IMG/VR virus record: IMGVR_UViG_2778261535_000013
Span: 1-43,950 of that record
Length of the DNA: 43,950 nucleotides
DNA from: a virus
Taxonomy: Duplodnaviria; Heunggongvirae; Uroviricota; Caudoviricetes
Strand: one strand, 5' to 3'
Notes under the pieces: model-generated
Told to the model about the DNA's origin: nothing
What the model saw: the letters and a program-made list of their open reading frames with translations, nothing else
Database searches by the model: none
Shown: positions 9,451 through 38,846 of the stretch, piece after piece
Numbering within the stretch: position 1 is the stretch's first letter
Layout: the number at the start of each line of letters is the position of its first letter
Program-made: the position numbers and the translations under genes

Positions 9451-9525
9451 GAATATTTCAAGTTTTTTAAAATCACCTGTATATCAATCGTTTAACATGA
9501 AAAAACAGTCTTTATAAATCATCAA

Positions 9526-9546
9526 GCAATACACAGCGCAATACAC
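9526..9546. repeat. GCAATACACAGCGCAATACAC, candidate integrase arm-type site (left arm)
   Basis: near-identical 21-mer (one mismatch) at 23938-23958 just inside the opposite end of the element. Confidence 0.4.
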
Positions 9547-9731
9547 GTATCTGTATTGTTTTAATGCTGATACACACCGTTTTTTGATACAGTGATTCGA
9601 CCTACCATCGCGAAGAATTTTTTATTTCTTGTGTGTAACAATCTGACGAGGTGAGCACTCAAAGAGATAAGAGGCAGTAGAAATTTCGATCCCCCCTGAA
9701 TGCAATTTTTCGTATATATATACAAAACAGC

Positions 9732-9885
9732 GCGGGTTATGCGGGTTAGCGGGTTATCTTCGCGTGCTAAGCATTTTTTACTCTTTAATATCAATAAGTT
9801 AAAAAAACAACGTATTTAAATATCAGCCAGAATATAACCCGCAAGACATTCAAAATAACCCGCAAACACCCCTCAAATAACCCGC
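9732..9885. repeat. iteron cluster A: three tandem GCGGGTTA(T/G) copies, an AT-rich spacer, and three inverted ATAACCCGC copies
   Basis: direct reading of the sequence; the same 9-mer recurs at 17572-17694. Confidence 0.55.
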
Positions 9886-9966
9886 AAAAACATCCCTGAA
9901 AGTGGGCGCTGGTAATACTGAAAATTTATTCCATTAAATGAGCATTGTCCTCTCTCATCCATTCCG

Positions 9967-11628: not shown

Positions 11629-11968
11629 GCTCGTCCTCCTCCTCTGTTTCCGGTGGATTTCTGCGGCGGCTTACCGGGTCAAAACCCAGCAAAGAAGCCA
11701 TTTTGATCATTATTCTTTCCGCGTCAGCCTTTGCGCTCAGGGCGGGGTTTCTGCTCTCGCTGCCCTGACTGTTAACAATGCTGAAGCCGCGCGTCGCAAG
11801 GTCTTCGACGGCTTTGCGGTATATGGAGTAGTTAACGCAATACAGTTCCAGATTGCTCCAGTCGGCGGGGGTAAGGTCTTCCCGCCCGGAAAGCTGGCGC
11901 GATTTTTCCTTCCACTGCCTGACCGCGATTTCATCCAGGTAAGCGGGGGCTTTTGGTGGTCTTGCCAT
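11612..11968 (-). CDS. terminase small subunit, P27 family
   Basis: likely start MARPPKAPAYLDE… at 11968; the ORF track extends further upstream to 12109; directly upstream of TerL. Confidence 0.7.
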   Translation of the reverse strand: MARPPKAPAYLDEIAVRQWKEKSRQLSGREDLTPADWSNLELYCVNYSIYRKAVEDLATRGFSIVNSQGSESRNPALSAKADAERIMIKMASLLGFDPVSRRRNPPETEEEDELDRLA

Positions 11969-12256
11969 GTTCTTTTTTCGCCCAATTATTTTCAAAAAAA
12001 TTCCCGTGCACAAAAATTTGAGGAGGCGGTCGGTGTCCGGCAGGGACGGTTTTGTCCTGAAAACCTCCCCCACCCCCTCTGACGGCCTCACCAGCGATTG
12101 CGAAAACATTCCATGACCTCGCGGTCACGGTCGGTTAATTGCTTCGCTGTGGTGCGTTCTGTGCGCCCTGTCCTGTTGGCTTTGTGCCCTGTCTCCTGTG
12201 TCTTCCATAAGTCACGCTGCCTTATCAGTCCACGTATCAGCCTGTTTTGCTCCTGT

Positions 12257-12697
12257 TCAGTCATCATCGCCATACATCCAGTCGTTACGGTGTGCCGCCC
12301 GTTCTTCCTGCTCGCGATACATGCCCGCCTTACGGTTCGCTTTCGTGGCTGGATCTTCCCGTGTCGTCTTACGGTTGTGGCACGTCTGGCACAATGCCTG
12401 GTGATTCCACTCAGGCCAGAAGAGAACATCACCGCCGCCATTGATGGGAATGATGTGATCCACCACAAGAGCTGGCGTATAAATCCCCTTAGCCAGACAA
12501 CGCACGCATAACGGGTTTTTGCTCAGGTACAGGGCGCGGTATTTGTCCCACTGTCGGGAATACCCGCGCGCGCGGCGGTGTCCCCGTCTGGCATCCTCTG
12601 CACGCCATGCAGCCCGCCTGTGCTCTTCACACTTTCCGGACTTCACGCGCTTATTACAGCCCGGCTCAGTGCAGCGCCTTAATGGTTGCCACGGCAT
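12257..12697 (-). CDS. HNH endonuclease (packaging-associated)
   Basis: 146 aa with Cys-rich N-terminus and VVDHIIP…H…C HNH motif; positioned next to TerS. Confidence 0.8.
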   Translation of the reverse strand: MPWQPLRRCTEPGCNKRVKSGKCEEHRRAAWRAEDARRGHRRARGYSRQWDKYRALYLSKNPLCVRCLAKGIYTPALVVDHIIPINGGGDVLFWPEWNHQALCQTCHNRKTTREDPATKANRKAGMYREQEERAAHRNDWMYGDDD

Positions 12698-12996
12698 CAG
12701 TACACCCCCACATCACGATAAACCGACCAGAGCGCAGAAATAGCCATAGGCAGTTCAGACTGCTCCACAGGTGAAACCGCTTCCCTGTTCTCGTACAGGA
12801 AAGCGATGTACATCAGGCAACCAACACGTATTGCCGGGGTAAATTCCAGCCCGTCTTCAAAACGTTTCCCGATATGCTTCTGGCAGGCTTCCAGCGCCGC
12901 ATCGGTATACATTTTCAGAAGTTCGCCTTCTCCGGAAAAGTCATCAAGGCGAAGATGTGCCCTGACTTCATCAGGTGTAATTTTGTCTTCACTCAT
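12697..12996 (-). CDS. head-tail connector (gp6-like)
   Basis: likely start MSEDKITPDEVRAHLRLDDF… at 12996; similar in pattern to the resident gp6-like protein. Confidence 0.6.
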   Translation of the reverse strand: MSEDKITPDEVRAHLRLDDFSGEGELLKMYTDAALEACQKHIGKRFEDGLEFTPAIRVGCLMYIAFLYENREAVSPVEQSELPMAISALWSVYRDVGVY

Positions 12997-14203
12997 CTTT
13001 TTCACCTTTAATTTCCACAGTCTGCTTCCATGCCTGGCTGAACTCGTCGCCACCTTCACGCGGCGGCATTCCCTCACGCTCACGGGCTTCGTTCGGATTC
13101 ATGATCCCGTTCTTAATCCCTTTCTCATACGTGGCGTAACGTTCAGTAGGTGTGGCGCGCAGTAAATCGGCTGAATCAAACTCAACCAGATAACGGGTAC
13201 CAGGTACGGGAGAAGCCACCAGCAAAGCGGCCTTGATTTGCTGTTCGAAGTTCGCCAGCCACGGACGCATTGTCATAGTCAGAAACGCGCGGCTTGCCTC
13301 ACTGAAATTGCTGTAGGTGCTGTTGCTGTATTCCTGCAGAAAAATCGGCGACACGTTGAACATCCGGGCGATGTCTTCAATGGAGAAGCGACGGGAGGCC
13401 AGCCATTCCGCATCCTGGTTACTCATCCCCAGTTGCTTGTAATCCATGCCCCCTTCAAGGATTGGCGTTTTTCCGGCATTTTTCGCCCCCTTGTAGCGTT
13501 CCAGTGCGTCTAATGCCTGTTTACCTTTCACGCCGTCCAGCCATTCGCCTGACGTGATAATCCCTGCCGCCATCATGCCATCTTTCATAATGCTGGCTCC
13601 GTGACGCTGTTGAGCAAGGCCAAGCCCCAGCGCCTCACGGCAAATCGTGATGGGGGAGCGTCCCAGAAAGCCATCATCCGAGGCATAGCGGAGATGCAGA
13701 ACTTCTTCCTGTAAATACGTGCGCACCGTTCCTGTACAGGGTTCGGTGATGGTATAGCGGTATTTGTGTGCGCCTGTGCGTTCCGGTACAACACACCCCG
13801 GCGCATAAGGATGAAGTGATTTTGGCTGACCGTCCCGCCCCCATTCAATAACCGCATAGGCGTTACCGTTCAGCAGGCAGTGACGCATCATTGTGCGTTT
13901 AAACTGGTAAGGTGTCTGGCACGAATTAGGCTGCTCATTCAGCAGAATATCTACCGGATGACTGTCCAGCCATTCCCGCGCCTCCCTGCCCTTGTCATTA
14001 CGTACCAGATACAGATAACACGGCATCGTGGCCACCGCCTCAGCGATGACGGAAACCGCGTTCATCACTGCGGGCAATGATTCAGCCGTCCCGGCAGAAA
14101 CATATTCTCCGGATCCGGTATTCGGTACGCCGGACAGCACCAGAAAATCATCAATGGACAGGTTACGTTGCTCGCTTTTTTTACGACTAAAAGGCCACCA
14201 CAT
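12989..14203 (-). CDS. portal protein, HK97 family
   Basis: likely start MWWPFSRKK… at 14203, one nucleotide after the protease stop; the ORF track extends upstream to 14422 across the protease gene. Confidence 0.8.
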   Translation of the reverse strand: MWWPFSRKKSEQRNLSIDDFLVLSGVPNTGSGEYVSAGTAESLPAVMNAVSVIAEAVATMPCYLYLVRNDKGREAREWLDSHPVDILLNEQPNSCQTPYQFKRTMMRHCLLNGNAYAVIEWGRDGQPKSLHPYAPGCVVPERTGAHKYRYTITEPCTGTVRTYLQEEVLHLRYASDDGFLGRSPITICREALGLGLAQQRHGASIMKDGMMAAGIITSGEWLDGVKGKQALDALERYKGAKNAGKTPILEGGMDYKQLGMSNQDAEWLASRRFSIEDIARMFNVSPIFLQEYSNSTYSNFSEASRAFLTMTMRPWLANFEQQIKAALLVASPVPGTRYLVEFDSADLLRATPTERYATYEKGIKNGIMNPNEAREREGMPPREGGDEFSQAWKQTVEIKGEKDE

Positions 14204-14204
14204 A

Positions 14205-14765
14205 TCACAACCCCGCCAGCTCTGCCCAGCGATGACGATTATTTCCTGCCGGGCGTAATTCAGGGTGCTGTGCAAACAACGAACGGTGGGCAATCTCCAC
14301 GCCAGATTCGGGATAAGCAGGCATCGACGTGATCGTGATTTCCCTGAGTTCTGCAGCGGTAACAGTACGCAGATACGGTTTTTGCGCGATATTCCACTCT
14401 TCGCATAATGCGCGAAAGCCAAAGCTCATCCCTGTAATGTCGCCACGCTCCACCAGCGTAAGCACATCTTTTCCAAGCTGGGTATCAGGCGGTGTCAGTT
14501 CAAAACGTAGCCCGGTGTTGTCCTCAGTCAGTACCAGAGTGCCGGATTTGGTGCGCCCCAGCAGTTGGGTATAGTCATGCTCATACAGGCAGCGCACATC
14601 ATTACCCGCCGCCAGATAGTCAGCAAAAGCCCCCGGCGTGAACTGTTCGCGGAATTCGTCCCAGATAATTTCTGAAAGGCTGTTCCAGCGAACGGCATAC
14701 CCCACCAGCTTTTTATTGCTGGCGGTCAGTTCAGATGTGCGGATTTCAAAATCGGTGTTTTTCAT
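14205..14765 (-). CDS. prohead protease, HK97 family
   Basis: 186 aa; sequence pattern of HK97 prohead proteases; lies between capsid and portal genes. Confidence 0.85.
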   Translation of the reverse strand: MKNTDFEIRTSELTASNKKLVGYAVRWNSLSEIIWDEFREQFTPGAFADYLAAGNDVRCLYEHDYTQLLGRTKSGTLVLTEDNTGLRFELTPPDTQLGKDVLTLVERGDITGMSFGFRALCEEWNIAQKPYLRTVTAAELREITITSMPAYPESGVEIAHRSLFAQHPELRPAGNNRHRWAELAGL

Positions 14766-14819
14766 CGGTGTACTCCATAAAGCTGAAAAAGGAGGCCGCA
14801 GCCTCCTCCTTACTCATGA

Positions 14820-15989
14820 CTAGCCAGCTTTCATTTCCAGAATTTTGATGGCGTTTGAATCCACCACACCACCGCCCAGATATTTATCCGTGTGGACCTT
14901 GTAGAATCCGGGTTCAGTAATGTTGTCCGGTCGGGTGCGAATCCCTGTTACATGATCAACGATGAAATAACCACGACTGAAATCGCCAACCGCTAGCGGT
15001 GCTTTTCCTGCGCCGATGTCCGGCATGGACTCCAGGCAGAAAACAGGACGACCAAGCAACATATCCGGCGCACCTTCTTTAAGGCTGTCGCGCCAGATAT
15101 AATCGCCATTCTCATTTTTCAGCTTCTGTAGTGTCCCTGCCGTGCCCGAGTTCATCACCCAGACGGCATTTTTGCGGTATTTCGCTTTCAGCTTGTAGAG
15201 AATGTCGATCAGTTCGTCCGCTGTAATGGCGGTTCCACTTGCCGCTACCACTTTTTCAATGGTGCCAAAAGCGCGGGTTTTGTCACTGGTCGCCGCACGG
15301 GTGTAAGCCATGAAGCCTTTCGGCTTGCCGTTACCGTCGCCATTAACAAAATCATCCTCTTCGGTGCTGGCGAACGTGTCGGCAATTTCGGAGGATAACC
15401 AGCCCAAAATATCCACCTCTGAAAAATCCAGGATTTCCTGCGTGGTTTTCGGGTAGGCGTAGATCTGATTCAGCTTGATGGTTACACGTTCAATTTTCGG
15501 GGTGTTGGTTTCACTACGTGCGCTGCCTTCTGTGCCTCGTCCTACAGTTGCGCCGCCAGTGGAAACCAGTTTCTGAAACTCATTTGATTTTGCGGTCTTC
15601 ACGGTCGCGATCACGCGCATAACACTGTCATCCTGTAGCTGGCGCATGACTTCGCGATCAAGCTCAGGAATTACGGTATATCCGCCATCCCTGCCGCTGT
15701 CAGTGCTGGTGGACAGTGATCGCACATCTCCGGTTACGATGTAGTTACGCAATTCATCAGATGATAATTTCTGGATGCCCGTTCCTGGCTTGCTGCGTTC
15801 TTCATCAGCCACAGACTCGAGGCGGTAAATTTCTGTGTCGAGGGAATCGGCTTTTGCACGCAGTTCATCAAACTGTTTGCCCTCGTCATCGTTCAGGCTG
15901 CGGTTTTCACTGTCGGCTTTTTCCAGCAGGGATCGCATCTGGTTTTTCAGGGCGGTTTTTTGCTGGCGGAGTTCGATTAATTTCTTCAT
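14820..15989 (-). CDS. major capsid protein, HK97 family
   Basis: 389 aa; N-terminal coiled-coil region then capsid-fold sequence closely paralleling the resident capsid protein (…GDGNGKPKGF…). Confidence 0.9.
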   Translation of the reverse strand: MKKLIELRQQKTALKNQMRSLLEKADSENRSLNDDEGKQFDELRAKADSLDTEIYRLESVADEERSKPGTGIQKLSSDELRNYIVTGDVRSLSTSTDSGRDGGYTVIPELDREVMRQLQDDSVMRVIATVKTAKSNEFQKLVSTGGATVGRGTEGSARSETNTPKIERVTIKLNQIYAYPKTTQEILDFSEVDILGWLSSEIADTFASTEEDDFVNGDGNGKPKGFMAYTRAATSDKTRAFGTIEKVVAASGTAITADELIDILYKLKAKYRKNAVWVMNSGTAGTLQKLKNENGDYIWRDSLKEGAPDMLLGRPVFCLESMPDIGAGKAPLAVGDFSRGYFIVDHVTGIRTRPDNITEPGFYKVHTDKYLGGGVVDSNAIKILEMKAG

Positions 15990-16226
15990 GAAGGTTTTCT
16001 CGTATTGGTTAAGATTCAGGACGTGAAACCAACACGGAGGGAGCGCCGCCCGACACTCTCGGCATCTCGCAGATCAACCCGGCATCGCGCAGGGGGTCAG
16101 GCGGCATTGTGGCGGCTCACGTCTGAGTGCCACACGCCAACATATACATAAAAATCAGTATGTAAACATCAGCCAGAATCACCGAACAACCTGGAACAAC
16201 CACGAACAAATAATTTACAAAACCTG

Positions 16227-16255
16227 AAAAAAAGACCTGGAGAAAATCCAGGCCT
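16227..16255 (-). terminator. intrinsic terminator after the replication/accessory operon
   Basis: minus-strand stem CCTGGA/TCCAGG with loop, followed by TTTTTTT. Confidence 0.5.
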
Positions 16256-16263
16256 TTATCGCT

Positions 16264-16512
16264 TTATTGTTTCACTGGATCCCGCATTCTGCGTCTTATT
16301 TTCCACAGATATTCGATCATCGCTTCCACCTGCTCACGATTGGTTGCGAAAATTTCCCCGGTCAGTGAGCTGCGCAGAAAATCATGATGATCCACAACAA
16401 ACAACGCATCGGAAGAAAGCAGACGGCGATATTTTTTTGCTGTCGTGGTTTCCAGATCATCAAAACCATGAAACTTTTTATGTTGCTGGACTTCTTCAAA
16501 TGTCACTGGCAT
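16264..16512 (-). CDS. hypothetical protein
   Basis: 82 aa ORF overlapping the ProQ/FinO-like gene stop; no motif. Confidence 0.35.
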   Translation of the reverse strand: MPVTFEEVQQHKKFHGFDDLETTTAKKYRRLLSSDALFVVDHHDFLRSSLTGEIFATNREQVEAMIEYLWKIRRRMRDPVKQ

Positions 16513-17045
16513 GTATCCCCCTTTGCTGCCCGGCGCTGGCGCTTGTGCTTCTCATTCAGCGCCATCAGCCGCGTTTCTGCCTCCTGCTGTTCCTGTGGTG
16601 TCACTTCCCCACATGGCTGGCCTTTCAGGTCGTATCGTACCCCACCAGCAACCAGGGCGCGGTAATAGCGCGGAGACTGCGCATAAGATGCCAGCGTCGC
16701 ACGTAATGCCCCCGGCCCGAATGCCAGCCCCCTGACGGCGAGATCCTGCATCAGGTCGTCGAATATCCCCACCTTAAGCGGCTTCGGTGCTTCCCTGTTG
16801 AATAAGTCAGGCCACATCTCAGTGAGGCGGTTAACGCGCCTGCGGTTTTTGCGCTGGCGTTTGGTCATATGCCGCCACGGTGTCACCCCTGTGGGCTGCC
16901 CTTTGCGGCTCTGCTGTGCGTTCTGATTGCCGGGTATCACTTTATGCGCCGATGTGGTTTTATCCCGCTCTTGCGCCGCCTGCGTCGTTTTCTGCGGCGT
17001 GCCGTAAATGCCTTTCGGTTTTCGGTTAATGGTCAGCTTTGTCAT
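16503..17045 (-). CDS. ProQ/FinO-domain RNA-binding protein
   Basis: C-terminal region …WPDLFNREAPKPLKVGIFDDLMQDL…YAQSPRYYRAL…RYDLKGQPCGEVTPQE… aligns by eye with the ProQ N-terminal FinO domain; basic N-terminus. Confidence 0.7.
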   Translation of the reverse strand: MTKLTINRKPKGIYGTPQKTTQAAQERDKTTSAHKVIPGNQNAQQSRKGQPTGVTPWRHMTKRQRKNRRRVNRLTEMWPDLFNREAPKPLKVGIFDDLMQDLAVRGLAFGPGALRATLASYAQSPRYYRALVAGGVRYDLKGQPCGEVTPQEQQEAETRLMALNEKHKRQRRAAKGDTCQ

Positions 17046-17081
17046 GCCTTCCCCTGTAATTACTCTGTTCGCTGTTGTGAA

Positions 17082-17507
17082 TTAAAACTGTATGTTATCC
17101 CCGTACAGGTCATCGTGCTGGCCTGTCTGTTGTTTTGCCCTGTTCAGTGCGTCAGTGGCCTGCCCCTGTTGGCCTTTTTTGCCGCCCGGTCGCGCCGTTC
17201 TCGCACTGATTACGCTGTCTGCGATGACCTGCCAGCCCTGCCGCGTTTCGCCGTTCTGCCCTGTCCACTGGCTTACCTGCATGTTACCCGCCACGTTCAC
17301 CAGTTCGCCTTTGCGGTGTTTTGCCAGTGCGTCGGCCTGTCTGCCAAACGCCAGGACGGATAACCACATCGTCGCCGTTCCGTCATCTGCCTGGCTGCAT
17401 GGCAGGGGAACCGCCATACTCGCCATCGCCATTTGTGTTCCCTTGCTGGTGGTCTTTAACTGCGGGTCAGCCACCAGCCGCCCGTAAGCCGCTATCTGTG
17501 CTGTCAT
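17082..17507 (-). CDS. ssb: single-stranded DNA-binding protein
   Basis: 141 aa; N-terminal OB-fold-like sequence, Gly/Gln-rich linker and acidic C-terminal tail DDLYGDNIQF. Confidence 0.7.
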   Translation of the reverse strand: MTAQIAAYGRLVADPQLKTTSKGTQMAMASMAVPLPCSQADDGTATMWLSVLAFGRQADALAKHRKGELVNVAGNMQVSQWTGQNGETRQGWQVIADSVISARTARPGGKKGQQGQATDALNRAKQQTGQHDDLYGDNIQF

Positions 17508-17571
17508 GCTGTCTGCTCTCCGGTTTTAACGTTGATGGTTACGCTTGTTTACACCCTTACGGTGAAATTCT

Positions 17572-17694
17572 GCGGGTTATAATCGCACTTTTGCGGGTTA
17601 TAACTGCCGTTTTGCGGGTTACGTGCGGGTTATTGATTTCCTTTTTATTCATACAGTTAATGCACTTATATACATGATAACCCGCATAACCCGC
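17572..17694. repeat. iteron cluster B: four GCGGGTTA(T/C) copies, an AT-rich spacer, and two inverted ATAACCCGC copies; candidate origin
   Basis: direct reading; lies immediately downstream of the replication gene. Confidence 0.6.
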
Positions 17695-17717
17695 AACTTT
17701 TCACCTCACACAGGGGG

Positions 17718-19841
17718 TTAATCTTCTGCCTCAGGCTGGAACATCAGCACGTAAAAAACATGCTGCTTCCCCCCAATTTTGCCGAGCGCCTTTTTCTTGT
17801 AACGGCGATCGTTACCCGCTTCCAGCATTCCGGCAGCACTCAACGCGCGGGCAAAGTGAGACGGATTAAATCCCTGTGCTATCTCACCCTCAAATACATG
17901 CGGGAACGTGTAAAAACGGAACTCGTCATCTTCGTTTCTGATACTCCCCTTTCTGTATCCGGCAAGTTCTTTAATCGGTAAATCACGCTCGTCGGTATTG
18001 GGCCACGGAAGGTATCTGCTGAATCCGAACGACGCTAAAAAAGCTTCTGCCTGTTCAACCATCTGTTTAAATTCCCTGTTACCCGTGCCGAACTCCTTCA
18101 CCCAGGCATTAAAATTATGCTGTATGGCATCGCGGCATTCCTGCTCATCCCAGCCAGTAACATGACCTGAAAGCACAAGCGCGGCCTCCAGTATGGCAAA
18201 TCGCTCCCCCACACGGTGAACCTGTTCGCCGTAGCTCTCCGGTATCAGGTTGCGCCACCGCTCACGGCATGTCCTTACCGTGTCCTTTGCCTCCTGCTGG
18301 TGTTCTGCCAGCCATTTAACCCACTCACGACCCGCCGCCCCGTGATTTTCTGTCCAGGCATCCTTTAACGCGTCTGCGTGCGCCTTTCCGGTGCTGTATT
18401 CGTGAAATTGCGTGGCTTTTTCCATCGGAACGTTAAGCAGGCGGACAAGCTGCCCCGCTTTGACTTTTATCCCCTCCGTTTTGAGGAATGTCTCAACGTC
18501 CATTTCTCCGGTGCTGATTGCCACCGTGCGCCAGTGTTTGATCTCCCTGTTGCCGCCGTCCTTCGCCCCCTGTAATTTCCCCGAACCGTTAAACAGCGTA
18601 TAGGCTGACGTGGACACCTCCCGCGCGTTTCCGGCCTGGCCTATTTCATCCAGGGGTAAAAGCCCGTCATTGTGTGCCTCTGCTTCGTTGGCGATACCTA
18701 ACGCTGTGCCGTACCAGGTCAGCCGCTGCGCGTCCGGCTCTCCCCATAAACTTGATGCGATGTTCTGTGTGGTGGTTTTCCCTGCCGATGACTGTTCGAA
18801 AAGATGTACCCCGAAGCCGTCAGCGCCCACCAGCCCGATTAATGGTGCGGATAACGATACCGCCACACCCAGCATCATGGACGGATTACCACCAGCCAGC
18901 CGCGCAACGGTATCGCGCCAGCCCTCCGCCGTTCCTGCCACGGAATAGCCATTAACAGCAGCCGTTTTTCCGGTAAACAGGACTGGCTTTTCGCAATCAC
19001 CAATGACCGAACCGTCCGGCATGATGTACGCGCCAAAATGCCAGCCCGTTGTTGTGCTTAACTGCCATTCCTCATGGCTTCCGCTTAACTGCATCCAGTC
19101 AGCCAGGATAGCCCTGTATTTACCGTTGGTTGTTACGTTCAGTCCGTGGTCTTTCAGCAACCGCCAGCCGTCACGGTCGCCAATGCCACCGCACGGAACC
19201 GCCATTGTGATGACTTCATGGTTTGCTAATTTTTTCCAGCGCATCACGCGGTAATGCTCTTTACCGATTGTCCCCGTTCCCAGTAGTTCAAGCGGGGAAC
19301 ATAACCACGTCTCAGGCCGGATAATTTCGCCTGACTGCTTATCCACTTTTGGCGTTACCCAGAAAACACCATCGGCGCGACTTTCAACGCGGGGCTTTAA
19401 TTCATCATCGCCCTGGATTTCTGTGATTTTTTTCTTTAAGGGCAACACCAGACTTTCCCCGCGCTCGTATTCGTCTTTGAGGCGAGGCAACTGGTCGGAT
19501 AAATCCGCCGGGCTGATGTCAGTTATCCCCGCGTATTCGTATACGGTCTTCACGCCAGCCACAGCCAGCAACGTGACGATCTGTGTAAGGCTACGTTCAG
19601 TGATGTGCCCTGCGCGGTAAACACGCACACACTGACGGCTATCATCAATAATTTGATAACCGGTAATATCTTTCAGGTGTTCATCTGACAGAACGACAGG
19701 CGGCACATTGTCGGCGGCAATATGCTTACCTGCCCATTCCTGCCACTCTTTCGCATGGCTCCACGCATCACTACCCGCAAAGATGATAACCTCCGTCATT
19801 TTGTCGGCTGGCTGGTGCTTTAAGTTTGGTGCGCGCTTCAT
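17718..19841 (-). CDS. replication protein, primase-helicase-like, with Walker A motif
   Basis: 707 aa; GxxxxGKT (…EQSSAGKTTT…); size and position beside the iterons match PICI/P4-type replication proteins. Confidence 0.65.
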   Translation of the reverse strand: MKRAPNLKHQPADKMTEVIIFAGSDAWSHAKEWQEWAGKHIAADNVPPVVLSDEHLKDITGYQIIDDSRQCVRVYRAGHITERSLTQIVTLLAVAGVKTVYEYAGITDISPADLSDQLPRLKDEYERGESLVLPLKKKITEIQGDDELKPRVESRADGVFWVTPKVDKQSGEIIRPETWLCSPLELLGTGTIGKEHYRVMRWKKLANHEVITMAVPCGGIGDRDGWRLLKDHGLNVTTNGKYRAILADWMQLSGSHEEWQLSTTTGWHFGAYIMPDGSVIGDCEKPVLFTGKTAAVNGYSVAGTAEGWRDTVARLAGGNPSMMLGVAVSLSAPLIGLVGADGFGVHLFEQSSAGKTTTQNIASSLWGEPDAQRLTWYGTALGIANEAEAHNDGLLPLDEIGQAGNAREVSTSAYTLFNGSGKLQGAKDGGNREIKHWRTVAISTGEMDVETFLKTEGIKVKAGQLVRLLNVPMEKATQFHEYSTGKAHADALKDAWTENHGAAGREWVKWLAEHQQEAKDTVRTCRERWRNLIPESYGEQVHRVGERFAILEAALVLSGHVTGWDEQECRDAIQHNFNAWVKEFGTGNREFKQMVEQAEAFLASFGFSRYLPWPNTDERDLPIKELAGYRKGSIRNEDDEFRFYTFPHVFEGEIAQGFNPSHFARALSAAGMLEAGNDRRYKKKALGKIGGKQHVFYVLMFQPEAED

Positions 19842-20152
19842 TTTGCCTTTCCCCGTTCACGAATAATTTCACGTACTGCCTTAATGCGTTCCATTCCTGT
19901 AACGCGCATGATTCTGTCGATGTCGCTTAATTCTGCTGGTGGTGCTTTACTTACCAAGGTGAACTCCCTGTCAAAGCGCATATGTGACGACACGCAGGGA
20001 TGCGCATAACCTTCGCGGATATAGGTCACACGAAAATCATCGACGGTTTTGATCGTTATCGTGCTGCCGTATTTATCCTGGAAAATATCGCCGGGGCGGA
20101 TTTCAGGCCGAGCGGGGCCGCTGGCAGTAAAGCCAGAATTTTTCTTTTTCAT
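19838..20152 (-). CDS. hypothetical protein
   Basis: 104 aa ORF, stop overlaps the replication gene start. Confidence 0.4.
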   Translation of the reverse strand: MKKKNSGFTASGPARPEIRPGDIFQDKYGSTITIKTVDDFRVTYIREGYAHPCVSSHMRFDREFTLVSKAPPAELSDIDRIMRVTGMERIKAVREIIRERGKAK

Positions 20153-20157
20153 GTTTT

Positions 20158-20406
20158 TTACTCCAGAGGCAGCTTTTTAGCGGCGAGCTCAATATCAGAT
20201 GTCAGAGAAACCTGTGTATTTGCCAGGTCTAACAACAAAGAAATAAGAATTTCTTCTCTGCTATCGGATTTATCGGTGCTAAGGCTGTTCATCCACATAT
20301 TGACGACTTCCCTGATTTTTTTCGCAGAGTGCAGGGCTTCAAATGCCAGGTCTTCAATATCATGTTTATTTCGCATAATCGCCCCCGCCATTTTCACAAT
20401 CAGCAA
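20158..20406 (-). CDS. hypothetical protein
   Basis: 82 aa ORF; true start uncertain. Confidence 0.35.
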   Translation of the reverse strand: MLIVKMAGAIMRNKHDIEDLAFEALHSAKKIREVVNMWMNSLSTDKSDSREEILISLLLDLANTQVSLTSDIELAAKKLPLE

Positions 20407-20611
20407 TCAGGATGGCTTTTGCCTCATTCAGCGCCGTATCAGCACTAAATTGCATGACAGCCAGTGAGTGAGGAACGAAAGCCCCGGCATATTCTGTTTC
20501 GCTGGTGGCGTGCTTATGCGCCTTGTCTGCGATAACAGAAATATCAATCAGCGCGTGCATCAGCGTTCTGATGGCTTCGGCGGCTGCGTCCGGACGGGTG
20601 TTATTACACAT
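20366..20611 (-). CDS. hypothetical protein
   Basis: 81 aa ORF; its ATG overlaps the stop of the upstream 67-aa ORF (ATGTGTAA) with AGGAGG RBS. Confidence 0.4.
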   Translation of the reverse strand: MCNNTRPDAAAEAIRTLMHALIDISVIADKAHKHATSETEYAGAFVPHSLAVMQFSADTALNEAKAILIADCENGGGDYAK

Positions 20612-20807
20612 GGCGTACCTCCTGACGAATACGGGCAGTAAATACCATCACGCAGCCGGCCGGGGATTGCTGGCGGGCTTCCTGTTCGCTGGTGGCCTCA
20701 ATGGTAATCACGCGCGGCTTAGCCGTGCTCAGGGCGATAAAACGCCAGATGTATTTATTCAGGTTGTGCGAGTCCCGCCCTTTCGGGTGTGTGGTATGAT
20801 TTAACAT
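20604..20807 (-). CDS. hypothetical small protein (67 aa), first gene of the leftward operon
   Basis: ATG at 20807 with RBS; corresponds to the C-terminal 67 codons of a long low-complexity ORF-track entry that is otherwise implausible. Confidence 0.4.
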   Translation of the reverse strand: MLNHTTHPKGRDSHNLNKYIWRFIALSTAKPRVITIEATSEQEARQQSPAGCVMVFTARIRQEVRHV

Positions 20808-20904
20808 AGCTACCTCGATACTTTCGCTATCGTTGGTGGTTAGAAGCCCCGTTACTGCTCCAACAGTGCGGGGTTTCGTCGTTTCTGCACCTTGCATAAA
20901 CAAG

Positions 20905-20985
20905 GTGTAAGACACAATGTAAAGCAGCAGTGTCTTACACGTCAATCCTTCAAAATAATTTTTTTTCGTGTATATTGTCTTACAC
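20905..20985. promoter_or_regulatory. divergent promoter region with three copies of operator GTGTAAGACAC / GTGTCTTACAC
   Basis: inverted pair at 20905-20915 and 20930-20940, third copy at 20976-20985 overlapping a TATATT -10-like hexamer about 30 nt upstream of the RHH gene. Confidence 0.5.
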
Positions 20986-21006
20986 CAAAAACATAAGGAG
21001 TTAGAC

Positions 21007-21186
21007 ATGGCAACAGGTCCAAAGAATGCAAAATCACAATCTGTAACTGCACGTATTGCCCATGAAATTATTGAAGGCATGGAAAAAGTGAAAGAAGAAG
21101 GCGAAAGTACAGGGCAGTTTATAAGCGCAGCCATGCGTGGCGAGATCAAACGCCGCCAGCGCCGCAAGGCCAAAGAGCAGGAGTAA
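21007..21186 (+). CDS. small ribbon-helix-helix-like regulator
   Basis: 59 aa from ATG 21007 (MATGPKNAKSQSVTARIAHEIIEGMEK…) with GGAG RBS; sequence pattern compatible with RHH/CopG-type DNA-binding proteins. Confidence 0.45.
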   Translation: MATGPKNAKSQSVTARIAHEIIEGMEKVKEEGESTGQFISAAMRGEIKRRQRRKAKEQE

Positions 21187-21243
21187 CCATCACCAGCGCC
21201 GTGGTGAGAGTAACTACGGCGCATTGCTATGCAGGTGCTTACC

Positions 21244-21423
21244 ATGAACGATAAAGAGTTAAAAAAAACACCACCACAAACACGGAAAGGACAGCGCAAA
21301 AAGATAGCGCATGAGCATGAATCAGAAAGATTCGCCCCCTGTGCGTTTGCTCTTGAGAAATTCCTTAAGGAGCACAAGAAAAAGCTATCATTGCAAACCT
21401 GGGAACGAACCGAATCTGACTGA
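21244..21423 (+). CDS. hypothetical small basic protein
   Basis: 59 aa from MNDKELKK… downstream of the RHH gene; no motif. Confidence 0.3.
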   Translation: MNDKELKKTPPQTRKGQRKKIAHEHESERFAPCAFALEKFLKEHKKKLSLQTWERTESD

Positions 21424-21516
21424 TCAAATTGCCCACCAGCCAGCAAATCGCTATGATGTTCGGGCTTATGTTTAGTGTTTTCCCATTGGCGACCGCCCCC
21501 GGTCGCCTTTGTTTTG

Positions 21517-22095
21517 TCACTGAATGCAGTTGTCAAAGTAAAACTCAGGCTGATATTCACGTATCAGCCTTTTTTCTTCTTCCTCCAGTTCACGCTTTTT
21601 GCGCTTACAGGCCTGTAGCTCCCTCCCCTTCTCACTGGCACTTATTTGATATTGCTCTTTACGGCGGGAAAAATCCTGCAATGCGCCCCACGGGATACCA
21701 TAAGCCCCTGTCTTTCTGATACCTGGTATCACATTCCTGAATACCCAGTTACTGAAACGATGAGCAAATGTGCCAGGCGTCGTTGCTTTGCGGCTGCGGG
21801 CTATTAGTTTGTAGAAACCTGACTCAGAGATAATGCTCATATTCTGATTTCCTCCGGGGGTGTAAGTTAAATTTACTCCCTTTTCATCATCATCAAGCAT
21901 CTGCAACGCCGTACGCGAATTGGTCAGTTCCAGCGCAGCGCAAACATCCTTTGCAACAAACCACGGATCGCCGTTCAGATACACCACGCGAACGTTCACA
22001 CCATCAAAGCGCAGAACGACCAGATCACGAATATCACAGAATTTTTTCACATGACGTGCGTCACCCTTGCCCGTCACGGCAATATTTTTATTCAT
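21517..22095 (-). CDS. Bro-N domain protein (antirepressor-like)
   Basis: …GDPWFVAKDVCAALELTNSRTALQMLDDDEK… matches the conserved Bro-N core. Confidence 0.7.
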   Translation of the reverse strand: MNKNIAVTGKGDARHVKKFCDIRDLVVLRFDGVNVRVVYLNGDPWFVAKDVCAALELTNSRTALQMLDDDEKGVNLTYTPGGNQNMSIISESGFYKLIARSRKATTPGTFAHRFSNWVFRNVIPGIRKTGAYGIPWGALQDFSRRKEQYQISASEKGRELQACKRKKRELEEEEKRLIREYQPEFYFDNCIQ

Positions 22096-22152
22096 CGCTT
22101 TCTACCTCACATACAAAAAACCCCGCATTGCGTGGTGCGGGGTTGTCGGTAA

Positions 22153-22431
22153 TTACTTATTGGCGTTTTTGTATGGGCTGTTTACTTCCTTTACTCCTGG
22201 CGGATGCATAACCCACCAGAGCACATCAGAGAGCAACCAGGAAACAGACACTTTCCCTAAATGAGCACGAGCAGGAAATGCTCCCTCCTGTTCAAGTACC
22301 CAACGTCTGCTTCTTGAAAGCCCGGTACGATTGGCACACTCATGTTCGCGTATACGGCGATCATACGGTTCGCCATGCTCTTTCAGAATCTGAATGCGTT
22401 CTTCGGGTGTAGGATAAATAAATTTTTGCAT
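22153..22431 (-). CDS. AlpA-family regulator (excisionase-like)
   Basis: likely start MQKFIYPTPEE… at 22431; …TGLSRSRRWVLEQEGAFPARAHLGKVSVSWLLSDV… matches the AlpA HTH pattern. Confidence 0.65.
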   Translation of the reverse strand: MQKFIYPTPEERIQILKEHGEPYDRRIREHECANRTGLSRSRRWVLEQEGAFPARAHLGKVSVSWLLSDVLWWVMHPPGVKEVNSPYKNANK

Positions 22432-22494
22432 AAAAATATCACCTATAAAAAAACCCGCCAAAAGACGGGTTGATTATATCTCATTTAATTTAGC

Positions 22495-22728
22495 TCAGGG
22501 TTTCCATTCACCCTTTACCCATTCCAGCACCTCAGATAAGCGCCAGACTTTTGTTTGTGGGCCAATACATATTTTTCGTGGAAATTTTCCTTCCTTTTCA
22601 AGTAACGATCTGTGTCTCCTGCCAAGAGCAGTTAACCATGCACATTCATCTTCCTTAATCATCCTGTCGATTGTTTTATCATTTTCAAGTTCTTCACGCG
22701 TAACTATTTGAATCATTACCATCACCAC
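22495..22728 (-). CDS. AlpA-family regulator (second copy)
   Basis: …LLEKEGKFPRKICIGPQTKVWRLSEVLEWV… matches the AlpA pattern; immediately downstream of the integrase gene. Confidence 0.6.
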   Translation of the reverse strand: MVMVMIQIVTREELENDKTIDRMIKEDECAWLTALGRRHRSLLEKEGKFPRKICIGPQTKVWRLSEVLEWVKGEWKP

Positions 22729-23917
22729 TAATTAGCTTATTCAGGTAGTCGTACCACCAGTTCATAGCTTCTTTTTTTCTGTCCATATACTGGCTTCTGT
22801 TATAAACCCCGGCAACACCGCCTAATGTGTGCCCAAGCAACTGTTCAACCACATTATGTTCAAAACCATGATCACTTAGCTTTGTGGCAAACACTCTTCG
22901 CATATCATGCGCCGTCCATTTCTCCGAGTGTTTCATCCTTTTCCATGTCTTACCGATAGTTACGCTTGCCGTACACTGACGCATATCAAACCCAATCACA
23001 TTTTCTTTGTTACCTGTTATTTTTTTTAACGTAACTAACCAGTTAAACATGCCATCAGGAATCGGTCTGATTATTTCCCTGCCATTTTTGCTATGATCAG
23101 CGGGAACGCGCCATAATTTCTTATCAAAATCCCACTCTCCCCAGGAGGACAGTAATACTTCTGACAGTCGGCAACCAAAAACTACCAGGAAACGTAAAAT
23201 AATTCGGTTTTCATATGATAATTCGTGATTGTCATAATCAGTATTAATACTTCGCCATAAATCTCTGATTTCATCATCTGTTAAAACCCTGCTTCTTCGC
23301 GCAGACTTTTTTCCCACATCACAGACCTCAAGATCATCAATTTCATGACTAATCGCGTATTTTCTTACCCGACAAAATTTAAGCGCCTGTTTTGATATAC
23401 GCAATAAAGCTCCGGCCTGTACAGGTGCTACTTTTTTTATTTTGTCAAAGCACTTGATCCACATAGATATTGAGCAATCACTAAGTGGTACATGACCAAT
23501 CACCGGATAAATATGTTTACCAAAGCACTGCCTGATATGTTCTGCTCCCCTACGCTTATCCATTGCATAATTATCAAGCCAGTATTCAAGCGCCTCACGA
23601 ACGGTAACAGGTTGCAAGGTGGCTTCCCGTTCAATTTTTATCTGAATCCGTGGATCTCTGCCCTCCGCAAGCCAGGTTCGACACTGATCGCGCATCTCTC
23701 TCGCTGATTTGAGACTCAGATCAGGATATTTTCCAAGTGTCAGCCAGATGGGCGCGGTTCCCCTTCCCGCCAGTCTGTAAAAGAAAACAAAACTAACACA
23801 TCCGTATTTACTGACCCGTACCGAAAGCCCGTTACCATCAGCGATGGTTTCCTGCCTCTCACTCCTGCGCCCAAGCAGGGAACGAAGTTTTTTATCGCTC
23901 AGTTTGTTTAGCGCCAT
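22694..23917 (-). CDS. int: tyrosine integrase, P4-type
   Basis: likely start MALNKLSDKKLRSLLG… at 23917; C-terminal catalytic region …HDMRRVFATKL…LLGHT…YNRSQY; adjacent to the right junction. Confidence 0.9.
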   Translation of the reverse strand: MALNKLSDKKLRSLLGRRSERQETIADGNGLSVRVSKYGCVSFVFFYRLAGRGTAPIWLTLGKYPDLSLKSAREMRDQCRTWLAEGRDPRIQIKIEREATLQPVTVREALEYWLDNYAMDKRRGAEHIRQCFGKHIYPVIGHVPLSDCSISMWIKCFDKIKKVAPVQAGALLRISKQALKFCRVRKYAISHEIDDLEVCDVGKKSARRSRVLTDDEIRDLWRSINTDYDNHELSYENRIILRFLVVFGCRLSEVLLSSWGEWDFDKKLWRVPADHSKNGREIIRPIPDGMFNWLVTLKKITGNKENVIGFDMRQCTASVTIGKTWKRMKHSEKWTAHDMRRVFATKLSDHGFEHNVVEQLLGHTLGGVAGVYNRSQYMDRKKEAMNWWYDYLNKLISGDGNDSNSYA

Positions 23918-23937
23918 GTGATTTATAACCCGTTTTT

Positions 23938-23958
23938 GCAATACACAGTGCAATACAC
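23938..23958. repeat. GCAATACACAGTGCAATACAC, candidate integrase arm-type site (right arm)
   Basis: matches 9526-9546 with one mismatch; 20-40 nt upstream of the int start codon. Confidence 0.4.
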
Positions 23959-24088
23959 AAATGATGAAAACAGCCAGAACCTTCCAGAAAAAACAAAAAC
24001 GACGAACAAGAAAAAATCTTTTTCTTTCATTTGGTTACTAAAAAAATCAGGACAGGCCGCACTGTTGTTACGGCGTGATGTTACGTTC

Positions 24089-24095
24089 TTGGTAA
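24089..24095. repeat. att core copy (TTGGTAA) at right junction of the inserted element
   Basis: identical to 9444-9450. Confidence 0.6.
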
Positions 24096-25116
24096 AAAAA
24101 TTCACCCGCGCAGAGACCTGTTCTTTCGCTTTTTTCGCCAGGCGACGCAGATCATCCCAGCGTTTACAGATGCCCAGGCCGGGATTCGCTTTCTGCCAGA
24201 CCGTTTCATCAAACGGATCATCTCCCTCATCGAGGGTGTAAATAATCGCAAAGTAGGAGTCGTCTTTTACCGCGCCCTCCACGTCGCTGTTATAGCCACG
24301 CAATACCTTGATGGCGTAATCACGCTGCTCGTAACAAATCCCTTCCTTGTTAAACCCTGCCGTGGTGATACCAAATAAAAGGGACTGCAGACGGGCACCG
24401 GTTGCCGTTTCCAGAACGTCCCACACGTCACGGGTTTTATGTGCATGCAGCTCATCAATAATGGCGCAGTGGATGTTCAGACCATCCAGGTTGTTTGCAT
24501 CCGAAGAAAGCGGTTCAAATTTTGATGCGCTCTGCTCCTGGTAAATCGCCAGCTTGTTGAAATCAAACAACCGCCCGAGTGTCGACCGGGCTTTTCTGAC
24601 CATATTTTTGGCGTCTTCAAACACGATTCTGGCCTGGTCACGCGTAGTTGCGGCTGAATACACCTCAGCACCGCCTTCACCATCTGCCCCCGTCATATAC
24701 AGACCGATACCCGATGACAGGGTTGATTTTGCGTTTTTACGGGCGACTTCGTTGTACGCCGTCCGGAACCGGCGCACCATCACCGGACGTCCGCTGCCAT
24801 CGCTGCGCATGACAACTTCCCCGGTCTCTTCATTGACCAGCGGAATGACAAAACCAAAAATATTAATGAGGATAAATACATGCCAGTCCATCAACTCAAT
24901 AGGCTGGCCTGCCAGCGCCCCTTTTACATGAGGCACAAATTTGTAGAAATTCAGGATGTGCTGCGCACGGGGTTCACTGAAATAAATCCCCCGCTCTTCG
25001 CCGTACTTCAGATCATCAAGAAAACGCTGGCAGGCCAGACGGACAAATTCGCCAGCGACAATTTCTCCTGCAACAACACGTTCGGCGTAGCGGATCCCGT
25101 CAGCCACTTTTGCCAT
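24089..25116 (-). pseudogene. terL: terminase large subunit, N-terminal (ATPase-domain) fragment of an interrupted gene
   Basis: authentic terminase sequence up to …QVSARVNFFTK at the junction, then about 50 codons of element-derived sequence before a stop at 23923; ORF-track entry 23923-25116. Confidence 0.85.
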
Positions 25117-28407: not shown

Positions 28408-28490
28408 TGGACCGTCACCGGGGACTCGAACCCCGCACCACAAAACAACAATACGTGTTATGCACTCTTACCCGATGAGTTAGTGACGGT
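28408..28490 (-). tRNA. tRNA-like gene with non-canonical anticodon arm (possible GUA anticodon), may be a pseudo-tRNA
   Basis: perfect acceptor stem CCGTCAC/GTGACGG, T-arm CGGGG-TTCGAGT-CCCCG and CCA end, but the anticodon arm only folds as ATAAC-ACGTATT-GTTGT with C at position 33. Confidence 0.45.
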
Positions 28491-28745
28491 TTTTTGTTCT
28501 GTGGGAATCCAGCCTGACGACAGAATTACTGGAACACCTTGCAAAAAAAGCCAGCCACCAGAGACTGGCTGGCAAATGACAGAGTTTAAATGATTCATCA
28601 TACAATCGTCGTTACAGGGGAATCCTGCGGTGCAGCAAGATACAGAAATGTAAGCAAACTAACAATAAGCAAGCACAGCATATTCGGAATTAGTTATAAT
28701 TTTAACGATGCAGTGCTTATTCAGCATGCAATTCTGCAAATTACC

Positions 28746-28771
28746 AAAAAAAAACCGCCTGCTAAGGCGGT
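28746..28771 (-). terminator. intrinsic terminator downstream of the tRNA cluster
   Basis: minus-strand stem ACCGCC/GGCGGT followed by a long T-run. Confidence 0.5.
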
Positions 28772-29135
28772 GGTCAAATCAGTAAGTGCTGAAGAGTATT
28801 ATTATAATACAAGTGAGGTGTCGGGTGCCTCCCGAAATACCTGACATTCCATCAGATACTGTAGTTTCCCGGCTAAACTACTTAAACCACCCCGCACATG
28901 GAGTTCACCTCATTTTGTGATGTTAACAACATCGGGATAGTGCATAATCAGCCCCTGCCAGGAAATATCAAAAATCCCACCAATAATGCACTATTCCGAT
29001 AGCGTCAAAAAACACAGCACCGAAATCATAACTGGTCTCCGTTATAATTCGGGAGCGCGATAAGGGATATACGAGACCTTTTCCCGCGAGAAAAAAAACG
29101 CCAGTGCTGAAAAACCTGTACCTCATTTGTTTTGC

Positions 29136-29210
<75 letters not shown>

Positions 29211-29213
29211 ATA

Positions 29214-29289
<76 letters not shown>

Positions 29290-29291
29290 AC

Positions 29292-29369
29292 TGGACCGCC
29301 ACCGGGGACTCGAACCTCGCACACTCAACTTAAAGGGTTGACGCTCTTTCCTGATGAGCTAGTGGCGGT
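29292..29369 (-). tRNA. tRNA-like gene, possible UUU (Lys) anticodon with C at position 33
   Basis: folds as CCGCCAC-TA-GCTC…GAGC-G-TCAAC-CCTTTAA-GTTGA-GTGTG-CGAGG-TTCGAGT-CCCCG-GTGGCGG-T-CCA with one T-stem mismatch; abuts the next tRNA with no spacer. Confidence 0.5.
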
Positions 29370-29445
29370 TGGTGGCCCTTGCTGGATTTGAACCAGCGAC
29401 CTGGCGATTATGAGTCGCTCGCTCTCACCACTGAGCTAAAGGGCC
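29370..29445 (-). tRNA. tRNA with CAU anticodon (Ile2/lysidine type or elongator Met)
   Basis: 76 nt GGCCCTTTAGCTCAGTGGTGAGAGCGAGCGACTCATAATCGC…GGGCCACCA; resembles E. coli ileX-type tRNA as recalled. Confidence 0.85.
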
Positions 29446-32206: not shown

Positions 32207-32362
32207 TTACTCCTCAGGTTCGTAAGCTGTGAAGACAGCGACCTCCGTCTGGCCGGTTCGGATTCGTACCTCGCAGAGGTCTTTCCTCGTTACCAGTGCC
32301 GTCACTATGACGGTTAAACAGATGACGATCAGGGCGATTAACATCGCCTTTTGCTGCTTCAT
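32207..32362 (-). CDS. hokD: Hok/Gef-family type I toxin
   Basis: 51 aa MKQQKAMLIALIVICLTVIVTALVTRKDLCEVRIRTGQTEVAVFTAYEPEE; matches the Hok/RelF family, essentially identical to hokD as recalled; the ORF track extends 19 codons upstream in frame. Confidence 0.75.
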   Translation of the reverse strand: MKQQKAMLIALIVICLTVIVTALVTRKDLCEVRIRTGQTEVAVFTAYEPEE

Positions 32363-32573
32363 AGCCTGCTTCTCCTTGCCTTTCGGCACGTAAGAGGCTA
32401 ACCTAGATTTGCCGTTCATAGATTGAGCCTCAGATTAATGTTAAGCGTTTTGCAGGACGCGTAATGTTAACTGGGGCTTTTCTCTATCTGCCTTTGGTGT
32501 TCATGCCTGAGACAGATAGCCTCAAGCACCCGCAGCCATTCTACTTAACTCCCGTCACCTGGCCAATATAAAA

Positions 32574-38793: not shown

Positions 38794-38846
38794 TTTCTGG
38801 TGACGTTTGGCGGTATCAGTTTTACTCCGTGACTGCTCTGCCGCCC
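38794..38846 (+). ncRNA. dicF: DicF small RNA
   Basis: TTTCTGGTGACGTTTGGCGGTATCAGTTTTACTCCGTGACTGCTCTGCCGCCC followed by TTTTT matches the DicF sRNA sequence as recalled; lies immediately upstream of dicB as in Qin. Confidence 0.7.

Follow-up and report, generated by a model that had tools for sequence, protein, structure and literature searches.

A predicted ribbon-helix-helix repressor with three matched operator-like sites between the divergent promoters of a capsid-forming PICI

The stretch of DNA that we analysed (the window) comprises 43,950 nucleotides of a Caudoviricetes record (IMGVR_UViG_2778261535_000013). It includes a lambdoid prophage, and inside the prophage, at about 9500-23960, lies a capsid-forming PICI of about 14.4 kb. 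(For the definitions of PICIs and capsid-forming PICIs, we used PMC6092414 and bioRxiv 10.1101/2022.09.08.507074.) As in those definitions, int, alpA, primase, and late genes all run in one direction, and the island has its own packaging and capsid set. Starting from int, the minus-strand genes encode the integrase, two AlpA proteins, a Bro-N/anti-repressor-like protein, an Icd-like protein, 81-aa and 82-aa proteins, a DUF4222 protein, and a DUF927 primase. Further on are the genes for SSB, ProQ/FinO, capsid, protease, portal, connectors, HNH, TerS, and TerL. The only plus-strand genes of the island are a 59-aa gene, which is the subject of this report, and a small companion ORF. Three genes serve as landmarks:

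22694-23953, minus strand: integrase
14820-15989, minus strand: capsid
9967-11628, minus strand: TerL (the island's own, complete)

Escherichia coli strain 10 has a 99.9%-identical module in the same overall gene order, and there the protease, the portal, the connectors, HNH, and a P27-family TerS are annotated. Between the primase and capsid genes, the window has genes for a ProQ/FinO-family RNA-binding protein (16503-17045; Pfam E = 9e-25) and for SSB (17082-17507). The island of strain 10 has a PerC-family regulator in their place.

The island sits inside the terL gene of the prophage. The N-terminal part of the prophage terL (23923-25116) corresponds to nuclease-domain positions 2-65 and the C-terminal part (8714-9439) to positions 64-283. 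Such nesting has been published as the "helper-embedded PICI" configuration (PMC10111431), and the embedded element is in this case a capsid-forming PICI. A tandem TGCAATACACA repeat (23937-23962) adjoins the start of the integrase gene, and there is an 11-bp match, GCAATACACAG, near the other end of the island (9526-9536). These repeats are candidates for the att core or for integrase sites. The host prophage also carries a five-tRNA cluster, a sok/hok locus, and the DicF RNA (28408-29445, 32357-32531, 38795-38846).

The 59-aa gene diverges from the leftward early operon. The region between them contains two predicted sigma-70-like promoters, P_L and P_R, which point away from each other and are interlocked with three copies of a short repeat (O1, O2, and O3). 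From left to right, the features are:

17718-20611, minus strand: remaining genes of the leftward early operon (81-aa and 82-aa ORFs, 104-aa DUF4222 protein, and 707-aa DUF927 primase/helicase)
20604-20807, minus strand: Icd-like protein, 67 aa, the first leftward gene (NF033153, 1.1e-18; phrog_6196, 2.7e-43)
20808-20909, minus strand: structured leader of about 100 nt, with hairpins at 20884-20912, 20847-20873 (core CCCCG...CGGGG), and 20812-20837
20905-20915, plus-strand orientation: O1, GTGTAAGACAC, extended as aGGTG-TAAGA-CAC; directly downstream of the leftward -10 and over the predicted start site
20916-20945, minus strand: leftward promoter P_L from a promoter scan (-35 TTGACG at 20945-20940, 18-nt spacer that includes O2, -10 TACATT at 20921-20916)
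20930-20940, inverted copy of O1: O2, GTGTCTTACAC; in the spacer of the leftward promoter, abutting the -35
20949-20976, plus strand: rightward promoter P_R from a promoter scan (-35 TTCAAA at 20949-54, 16-nt T-rich spacer, -10 TATATT at 20971-76)
20975-20985, same orientation as O2: O3, tTGTCTTACAC (10/11); reaches the last base of the rightward -10 and covers the predicted start site
21007-21186, plus strand: 59-aa gene (ATG start; Shine-Dalgarno AAGGAG at 20995-21000)
21244-21423, plus strand: companion ORF (59 aa if it starts at ATG 21244, 64 aa if at 21229; phrog_21027, no assigned function)
21488-21517, plus strand: terminator-like hairpin and T-run, which ends the rightward unit

The first leftward ORF starts at 20807, which is 98 bp from O1. 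An earlier note on this DNA had placed the leftward operon (67-, 81-, 82-, and 104-aa ORFs, followed by the replication gene) about 100 bp away, and this is what we found. The operon has the same gene order in a related locus, L001. As judged from the predicted promoter, transcription from P_L would take in the Icd-like gene, the gene for the DUF927 primase, and those further on. A mechanical ORF of 72 aa begins at GTG 20968, upstream of the ATG of the 59-aa gene; we rejected this start, which lies within the -10 and is not conserved.

The companion ORF is co-oriented with the 59-aa gene. It is annotated as hypothetical in L001 and is present only in a subset of the E. coli loci. In a Salmonella relative (L008), genes for TumE and HVO_A0114 occupy the same slot, which may be a cargo slot. 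Just after the stop codon of the 59-aa gene (21196-21222) is a hairpin with a 7-bp stem, GCGCCGT...ACGGCGC, which is kept in EcCICFT073, the model PICI of Gram-negative bacteria.

We then considered whether the three repeats are distinctive. O2 is the exact reverse complement of O1, and the two are separated by a spacer of 14 bp (20916-20929), so that they bracket the -10 of P_L. The third copy, TGTCTTACAC at 20976-20985, matches O2 at 10 of 11 positions if position 20975 is included. In both strands of the entire 43,950-bp window, there are 4 matches to the repeat with at most one mismatch (0.54 expected), and 3 of the 4 lie inside 81 bp. None of 100 dinucleotide-preserving shuffles contained 4 matches. 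If two mismatches are allowed, there are 13 matches (8 expected), with no excess outside the intergenic region and none above chance in the rest of the element. The repeats are thus confined to the O1-O3 intergenic region. The inverted pair with its 14-bp spacer and the third copy had been described in the earlier note. All three were recovered and are far beyond chance; the overlap that it reported between the third copy and TATATT amounts to the last base of that hexamer.

Another inverted repeat, CACCTTG-N6-CAAGGTG (20889-20908), abuts O1. Its position is kept in many operator classes (described below), and in the class with the strand SQMTTVR, AAGGTG/CACCTT arms flank O1 itself instead. 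This repeat could be a 5'-terminal hairpin of the mRNA or a site for a second protein.

The leader of the leftward transcript has an MFE of -34.2 kcal/mol (z = -3.1). Across 15 loci, 5 of the 12 consensus leader pairs show compensatory changes. The leader, from P_L to the start codon of the Icd-like gene, is more conserved than the flanking genes and is 87-100% identical to that of EcCICFT073. A conserved CUUCUAACCACCAA follows the central hairpin. The leader has no match in Rfam: in a scan of 19800-22800 (E <= 1), neither the leader nor the intergenic region matched C4, isrK, or any other family. The only hits in that scan were two terminator look-alikes, both after alpA genes. With gathering cutoffs, a scan of the whole window found only sok, DicF, and tRNAs of the prophage.

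The 59-aa protein belongs to an uncharacterised family, YlcI/YnfO (NCBIfam NF041551; 67.6 bits vs. a cutoff of 30, E = 7.2e-19, residues 9-50), and RefSeq names its relatives accordingly. In PHROGs, it falls into families with no assigned function. Pfam has no family for it at E <= 0.1, including the models for ribbon-helix-helix (RHH) proteins, and searching PDB sequences with the protein or with a profile of 25 sequences gave nothing meaningful. Comparing the protein to 50,697 phage records with tblastn gave no match either.

RHH proteins have a G-x-S/T/N turn between the helices and a strand in which polar and hydrophobic residues alternate. The 59-aa protein follows the RHH plan of about 45 residues (an N-terminal strand, a helix, a tight turn, and a helix). 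We built an AlphaFold2 model of the monomer from the 25-sequence alignment (pLDDT 90.3), and it has an extended N-terminus, a helix at 19-28, a turn, and a second helix at 35-58, which ends in a basic tail. (In the monomer model, the N-terminus is extended but is not a DSSP strand.) The predicted recognition strand is residues 10-17 (SQSVTARI), with polar residues at 12, 14, and 16 and hydrophobic residues at 13, 15, and 17; R16 is invariant. The turn is G32-E33-S34, which has the G-x-S form, and E33 and S34 are invariant in the alignment. The family also shares an arm at the N-terminus, MATGxKNxKS, that is conserved, and its C-terminal helix is long and basic. The best structural matches to the model are the RHH antitoxins TacA, MazE, CopA_SO, and VapB. 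Overall, the prediction that this is an RHH DNA-binding protein is strongly supported. The assignment comes from the predicted fold, since the searches against Pfam's RHH models and PDB sequences were empty. The earlier note had called the ORF RHH-like and had proposed structure prediction or a profile search as the check. The predicted structure bears this out; the profile search led to a named family, NF041551, but not to a curated RHH family in Pfam.

We found the divergent pair of an Icd-like gene and a YlcI/YnfO gene in 1,402 of 5,426 complete E. coli genomes. From the E. coli matches, look-ups of exactly matching proteins, and a scan of one genome per species, we assembled 67 unique upstream regions. 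These come from Escherichia, Salmonella, Citrobacter, Enterobacter, Kluyvera, Pectobacterium, Yersinia, Serratia, Xenorhabdus, Hafnia, and other Enterobacterales. Nearly all of them have three matched 10-11-mers, at about -112 to -97, at -76, and at -31 relative to the ATG. Both the small ORF and the repeats are kept in relatives; the loss of either was among the outcomes that the earlier note had said would count against it. The general form of the site is (G)GTG-N5-CAC(C).

The sites are also fixed relative to promoter elements. The equivalent of O2 is at -76 and is followed by (G/T)TCAA in about 90% of the 67 loci; read as the reverse complement, TTGAC, TTGAA, or TTGAG abuts O2. In 61 of the 67 regions, this -35 is followed after 16-19 nt by a TAnnnT. 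On the other side, the hexamer at -36 to -31, which abuts O3, is TATACT or a one-off variant of it in most loci.

The N5 core is the same within a locus and differs between loci. At O3 there are 19 variants of N5, and we distinguish about 17 classes. The central 5 bp of O3 differ from those of O2 by 1-2 bases in 23 of 50 loci. The recognition strands and the operators that accompany them include:

SQSVTAR: GTGTAAGACAC (the class of the window)
SQMTTVR: GTGTATTTCAC
SQLFTVR: GTGTGTTTCAC
SQTVAAR: GTGTTGAACAC
SKKLEAR: GTGTCAGCCAC
SQALKAR: GTGTGGCCCAC
SQKLQAR: GTGGACTCCAC
SQQIVSR: TGAATGCCAC
SKRFDVR: GTGTCGGACAC
SQQLNAR: TGAATCGCAC
SLQVSVR: TGAACACCAC

The mapping is not one-to-one: SQKTSVR and SKRFDVR are both paired with TGTCGGACAC. 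Of the first 50 positions of the protein, residues 12 and 14 are the most informative about operator class (mutual information 0.60 and 0.65 of the class entropy), and operator class accounts for about 96-98% of the entropy of these two residues. N7, S10, and R16 are invariant, and K9 is nearly so. Part of the covariation is due to shared ancestry, because the operators and the gene are physically linked. To limit this effect, we binned pairs of loci by their identity outside of residues 11-15. In the bin with 70-80% identity, the operator was shared in 46 of 46 pairs with the same residues at 12 and 14, as compared to 5 of 132 pairs with different residues.

A comparison of the window to EcCICFT073 shows how sharply the variation is delimited. 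Over the 240 bp to the left, their identity is 87-100%; it falls to 50-63% at the operators, is 63-83% in the first two-thirds of the RHH gene, and returns to 100% at the gene's 3' end. As read from these sequences, the operators and the recognition strand are exchanged between islands as one cassette, in an immunity-type mosaic. If the classes act like immunity types, co-resident copies might differ in class, and they do in 10 of 11 pairs, but this is not significant (P = 0.55) because a class is shared by only 13% of random pairs.

Two variant architectures occur among related loci (L003-L005, from E. coli, and L006-L007). In one class, the protein is extended at its C-terminus to 101 aa, and four TGTAAG half-sites form two inverted pairs. 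In another, the class of L006 and L007, the third site lies on the -35 of P_R and not at +1. We also considered whether the O157:H7 relative, L004, might be EcCIEDL933; it is a classical PICI with terS and capsid genes only, and we make no claim about EcCIEDL933.

From what we computed (the sites and their statistics, the overlap with promoters, the fold, the conserved architecture, the covariation, and the mosaicism), we infer that the protein binds the sites, in which direction it regulates, and in what order the sites fill. We think it likely that dimers of the RHH protein bind the three pseudo-palindromic sites of 11-13 bp and repress both the leftward operon and their own gene, with the specificity predicted to lie in the central 5 bp. 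Because O1 and O2 bracket the -10 of P_L, their occupancy should silence the leftward operon: RNA polymerase would be excluded from P_L, and the Icd-like and replication genes would be off. O3 is presumed to be the autoregulatory site of the 59-aa gene. Since it overlaps the end of the P_R -10 and the start site, its occupancy should limit the protein's own synthesis from P_R, which would hold the repressor at a steady level. The -10 constrains O3, which has cTG instead of GTG, and its core differs from that of O2 in nearly half of the loci compared. This suggests that O3 is the weakest site and that autoregulation is homeostatic; as the least perfect copy, O3 would fill last. As to recognition, residues 12 and 14 of the strand would read the central 5 bp, and the invariant or nearly invariant N7, K9, S10, and R16 would contact the invariant GTG/CAC flanks. 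Exchange of the cassette would then give rise to many specificity ("immunity") classes.

How might the repression be released? Probably not by destruction of the repressor. The two AlpA paralogues (22495-22728 and 22153-22461) are encoded on the minus strand, and a strong intrinsic terminator lies after each gene (about 22445-22470 and 22112-22140; these are weak look-alikes of Trp/Thr leaders in Rfam). The sole terminator at the end of the rightward unit points rightward. In Pseudomonas, AlpA is a processive antiterminator (PMC7969949, PMC9371919). The terminators after the alpA genes suggest that leftward read-through is controlled by antitermination. Speculatively, polymerase modified by AlpA might read leftward through these terminators, antisense through the RHH gene, and into the replication operon, and such read-through would both bypass P_L and silence the repressor. 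Alternatively, the Bro-N protein could act as an anti-repressor.

The three sites might instead be operators for another protein, namely the Icd-like product, AlpA, or a repressor of the helper phage, which would couple the island to helper induction. Two families labelled "transcriptional repressor" (phrog_6196 and phrog_1743) do match the 67-aa Icd-like protein, AlpA is an experimentally established regulator of such islands (PMC6092414), and the diversity of operators could in principle reflect the diversity of helper immunity. But at six E. coli loci, Icd-like proteins that are 88-93% identical to the window's are found with three different operator classes. Conversely, a Superficieibacter locus has the same operator and strand as the window while its Icd-like protein is only 60% identical, and many loci that lack an Icd-like gene retain the three sites. 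The AlpA homologues, too, are uncoupled from operator class. The sequence of the site goes only with RHH residues 12 and 14, even at matched background divergence, and the cassette that diverges from EcCICFT073 takes in exactly the operators and the 5' portion of the RHH gene. We therefore consider it unlikely that another protein is the binder. That the RHH protein activates P_L, or acts as a two-way switch, has perhaps as small a chance. The sign of regulation is read from the position of the sites, and some RHH proteins, such as AmrZ, activate as well as repress. Yet with O2 in the spacer of P_L, O1 on the P_L start, and O3 on the P_R start, protein bound at these positions would normally exclude RNA polymerase.

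Could the repeats serve replication or packaging, as iterons or as cos/terminase sites? This is very improbable. The operator that accompanies DUF927 in the window is paired in L002 with a "DNA primase family" protein; a RepA helicase or D5_N goes with other classes; and different repeats accompany similar initiators. In EcCICFT073, the origin was mapped downstream of pri (PMC6092414). Furthermore, the sites occur in islands with and without their own terminase and are locked to promoter hexamers, and the intergenic region of ylcI and nohD in DLP12 lacks the three-site architecture. It also seems scarcely credible that the RHH protein is an antitoxin whose sites merely autoregulate a toxin-antitoxin pair. 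Its closest structural matches are antitoxins, a small ORF follows the gene in the window, and the Salmonella locus described above has the TumE and HVO_A0114 genes after it. Nevertheless, most of the 67 loci have the gene as a monocistronic unit, and any downstream ORF is not conserved, so the gene is not half of such a pair. Also, two of the three sites are on the divergent promoter of the replication operon. Repression by the RHH protein remains the reading that we prefer.

Several known systems resemble the proposed repressor and its operators. The closest in function are Arc and Mnt of phage P22, CopG, and omega, which are small RHH proteins with operators in promoters, autoregulation, and sites that tolerate either orientation. 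The immI proteins Arc and Mnt have no detectable sequence relationship to the 59-aa protein. They are two proteins with one operator of about 21 bp each, and the operon that they control is that of the antirepressor. Here, in contrast, one protein would act at three separate sites of 11-13 bp and control a replication/Icd-like operon. CopG (of pMV158) and omega (of inc18 plasmids) are RHH repressors of copy control, and their sites are contiguous and on plasmids. The sites described here are 22-45 bp apart and in phage satellites, and the protein has the MATGxKNxKS arm. The arrangement is also reminiscent of cI-OR-cro in lambdoid phages: both have three operators on back-to-back promoters, the autoregulatory site (here O3, by prediction) being the weakest, and in both, the repressor's specificity and the operators are exchanged as a mosaic cassette with many immunity types. 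However, the fold here is RHH instead of HTH, and there is no second, Cro-like protein.

Within the protein's own family (NF041551), E. coli K-12 has YlcI (in DLP12) and YnfO (in Qin), and the sequence of YlcI reads as strand-helix-turn-helix. Unlike the island gene, ylcI and ynfO lie beside cos and terminase genes in lambdoid prophages. We considered K-12 ylcI (L077, 580251-580834) as a second example of the module and rejected it: it is divergent from nohD across cos, and its upstream region lacks three matched sites.

The module is present in EcCICFT073, where the RHH gene (C_RS30120; NC_004431 1380473-1380652) encodes the strand SQALKAR; two of its operators read GTGTGGCCCAC and the third reads TGTCCCCCAC. 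The 2018 description of this island considered the global repressor in Gram-negative PICIs to be "unclear" and called the difference from Gram-positive islands "a mystery" (PMC6092414). The earlier note had suggested a comparison with the repressor regions of known PICIs, and the outcome was not the one anticipated: Gram-negative PICIs have no described repressor, and the module is unrelated to Stl/Rpr of the Gram-positive PICIs (SaPIs). What is shared with Stl/Rpr is a gene that diverges from the replication operon and a presumed role in quiescence (PMC6092414). Stl and Rpr are large, their genes adjoin int and are co-oriented with it, and they are relieved by anti-repressors of the helper phage (PMC6092414). 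In contrast, the 59-aa gene is opposite to int and alpA and is separated from int by the Bro-N and alpA genes, its product has an RHH fold, and the inducer is AlpA.

AlpA is required for the induction of EcCICFT073, and expression of AlpA alone leads to excision and runaway replication (PMC6092414). Since AlpA alone suffices, the repressor can be overridden from upstream and is not dominant. The earlier note's "master repressor and operator module" should accordingly be divided: a repressor and its operators are well supported in silico by the fold, the fixed sites, and the covariation, but "master" is not, given the induction by AlpA, and that label is unproven. Tentatively, and with somewhat less than even confidence, we suggest that Gram-negative PICIs, including EcCICFT073, have in the RHH protein their missing global repressor. 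This protein would hold replication and the late operon off while the island is integrated; there would be about 17 or more immunity groups that do not cross-react; and AlpA-dependent transcription would override it, with no anti-repressor of the kind that acts on SaPIs.

Our literature search (most subscription journals lay outside its scope) found no functional study of this gene or of the YlcI/YnfO family and no later paper that assigns a function. The paper on helper-embedded PICIs describes the zone as having Bro-network genes and immunity RNAs, and the RHH gene is absent from its description (PMC10111431). In a 2026 survey, the name "YlcI/YnfO family protein" occurs for cf-PICIs with no label other than "prophage-associated protein".

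As a kind of system, a small RHH repressor with its operators is well known, and if the protein is only a local autoregulator, then ours is an ordinary result. What we add is a proposed function for the uncharacterised YlcI/YnfO family and a candidate for the regulator that was thought to be missing from Gram-negative PICIs. As the module is present in EcCICFT073, which is experimentally tractable, the question of the repressor is directly testable. The roughly 17 natural pairs of operator and recognition strand also form a data set for how RHH proteins read DNA and for orthogonal small repressors.
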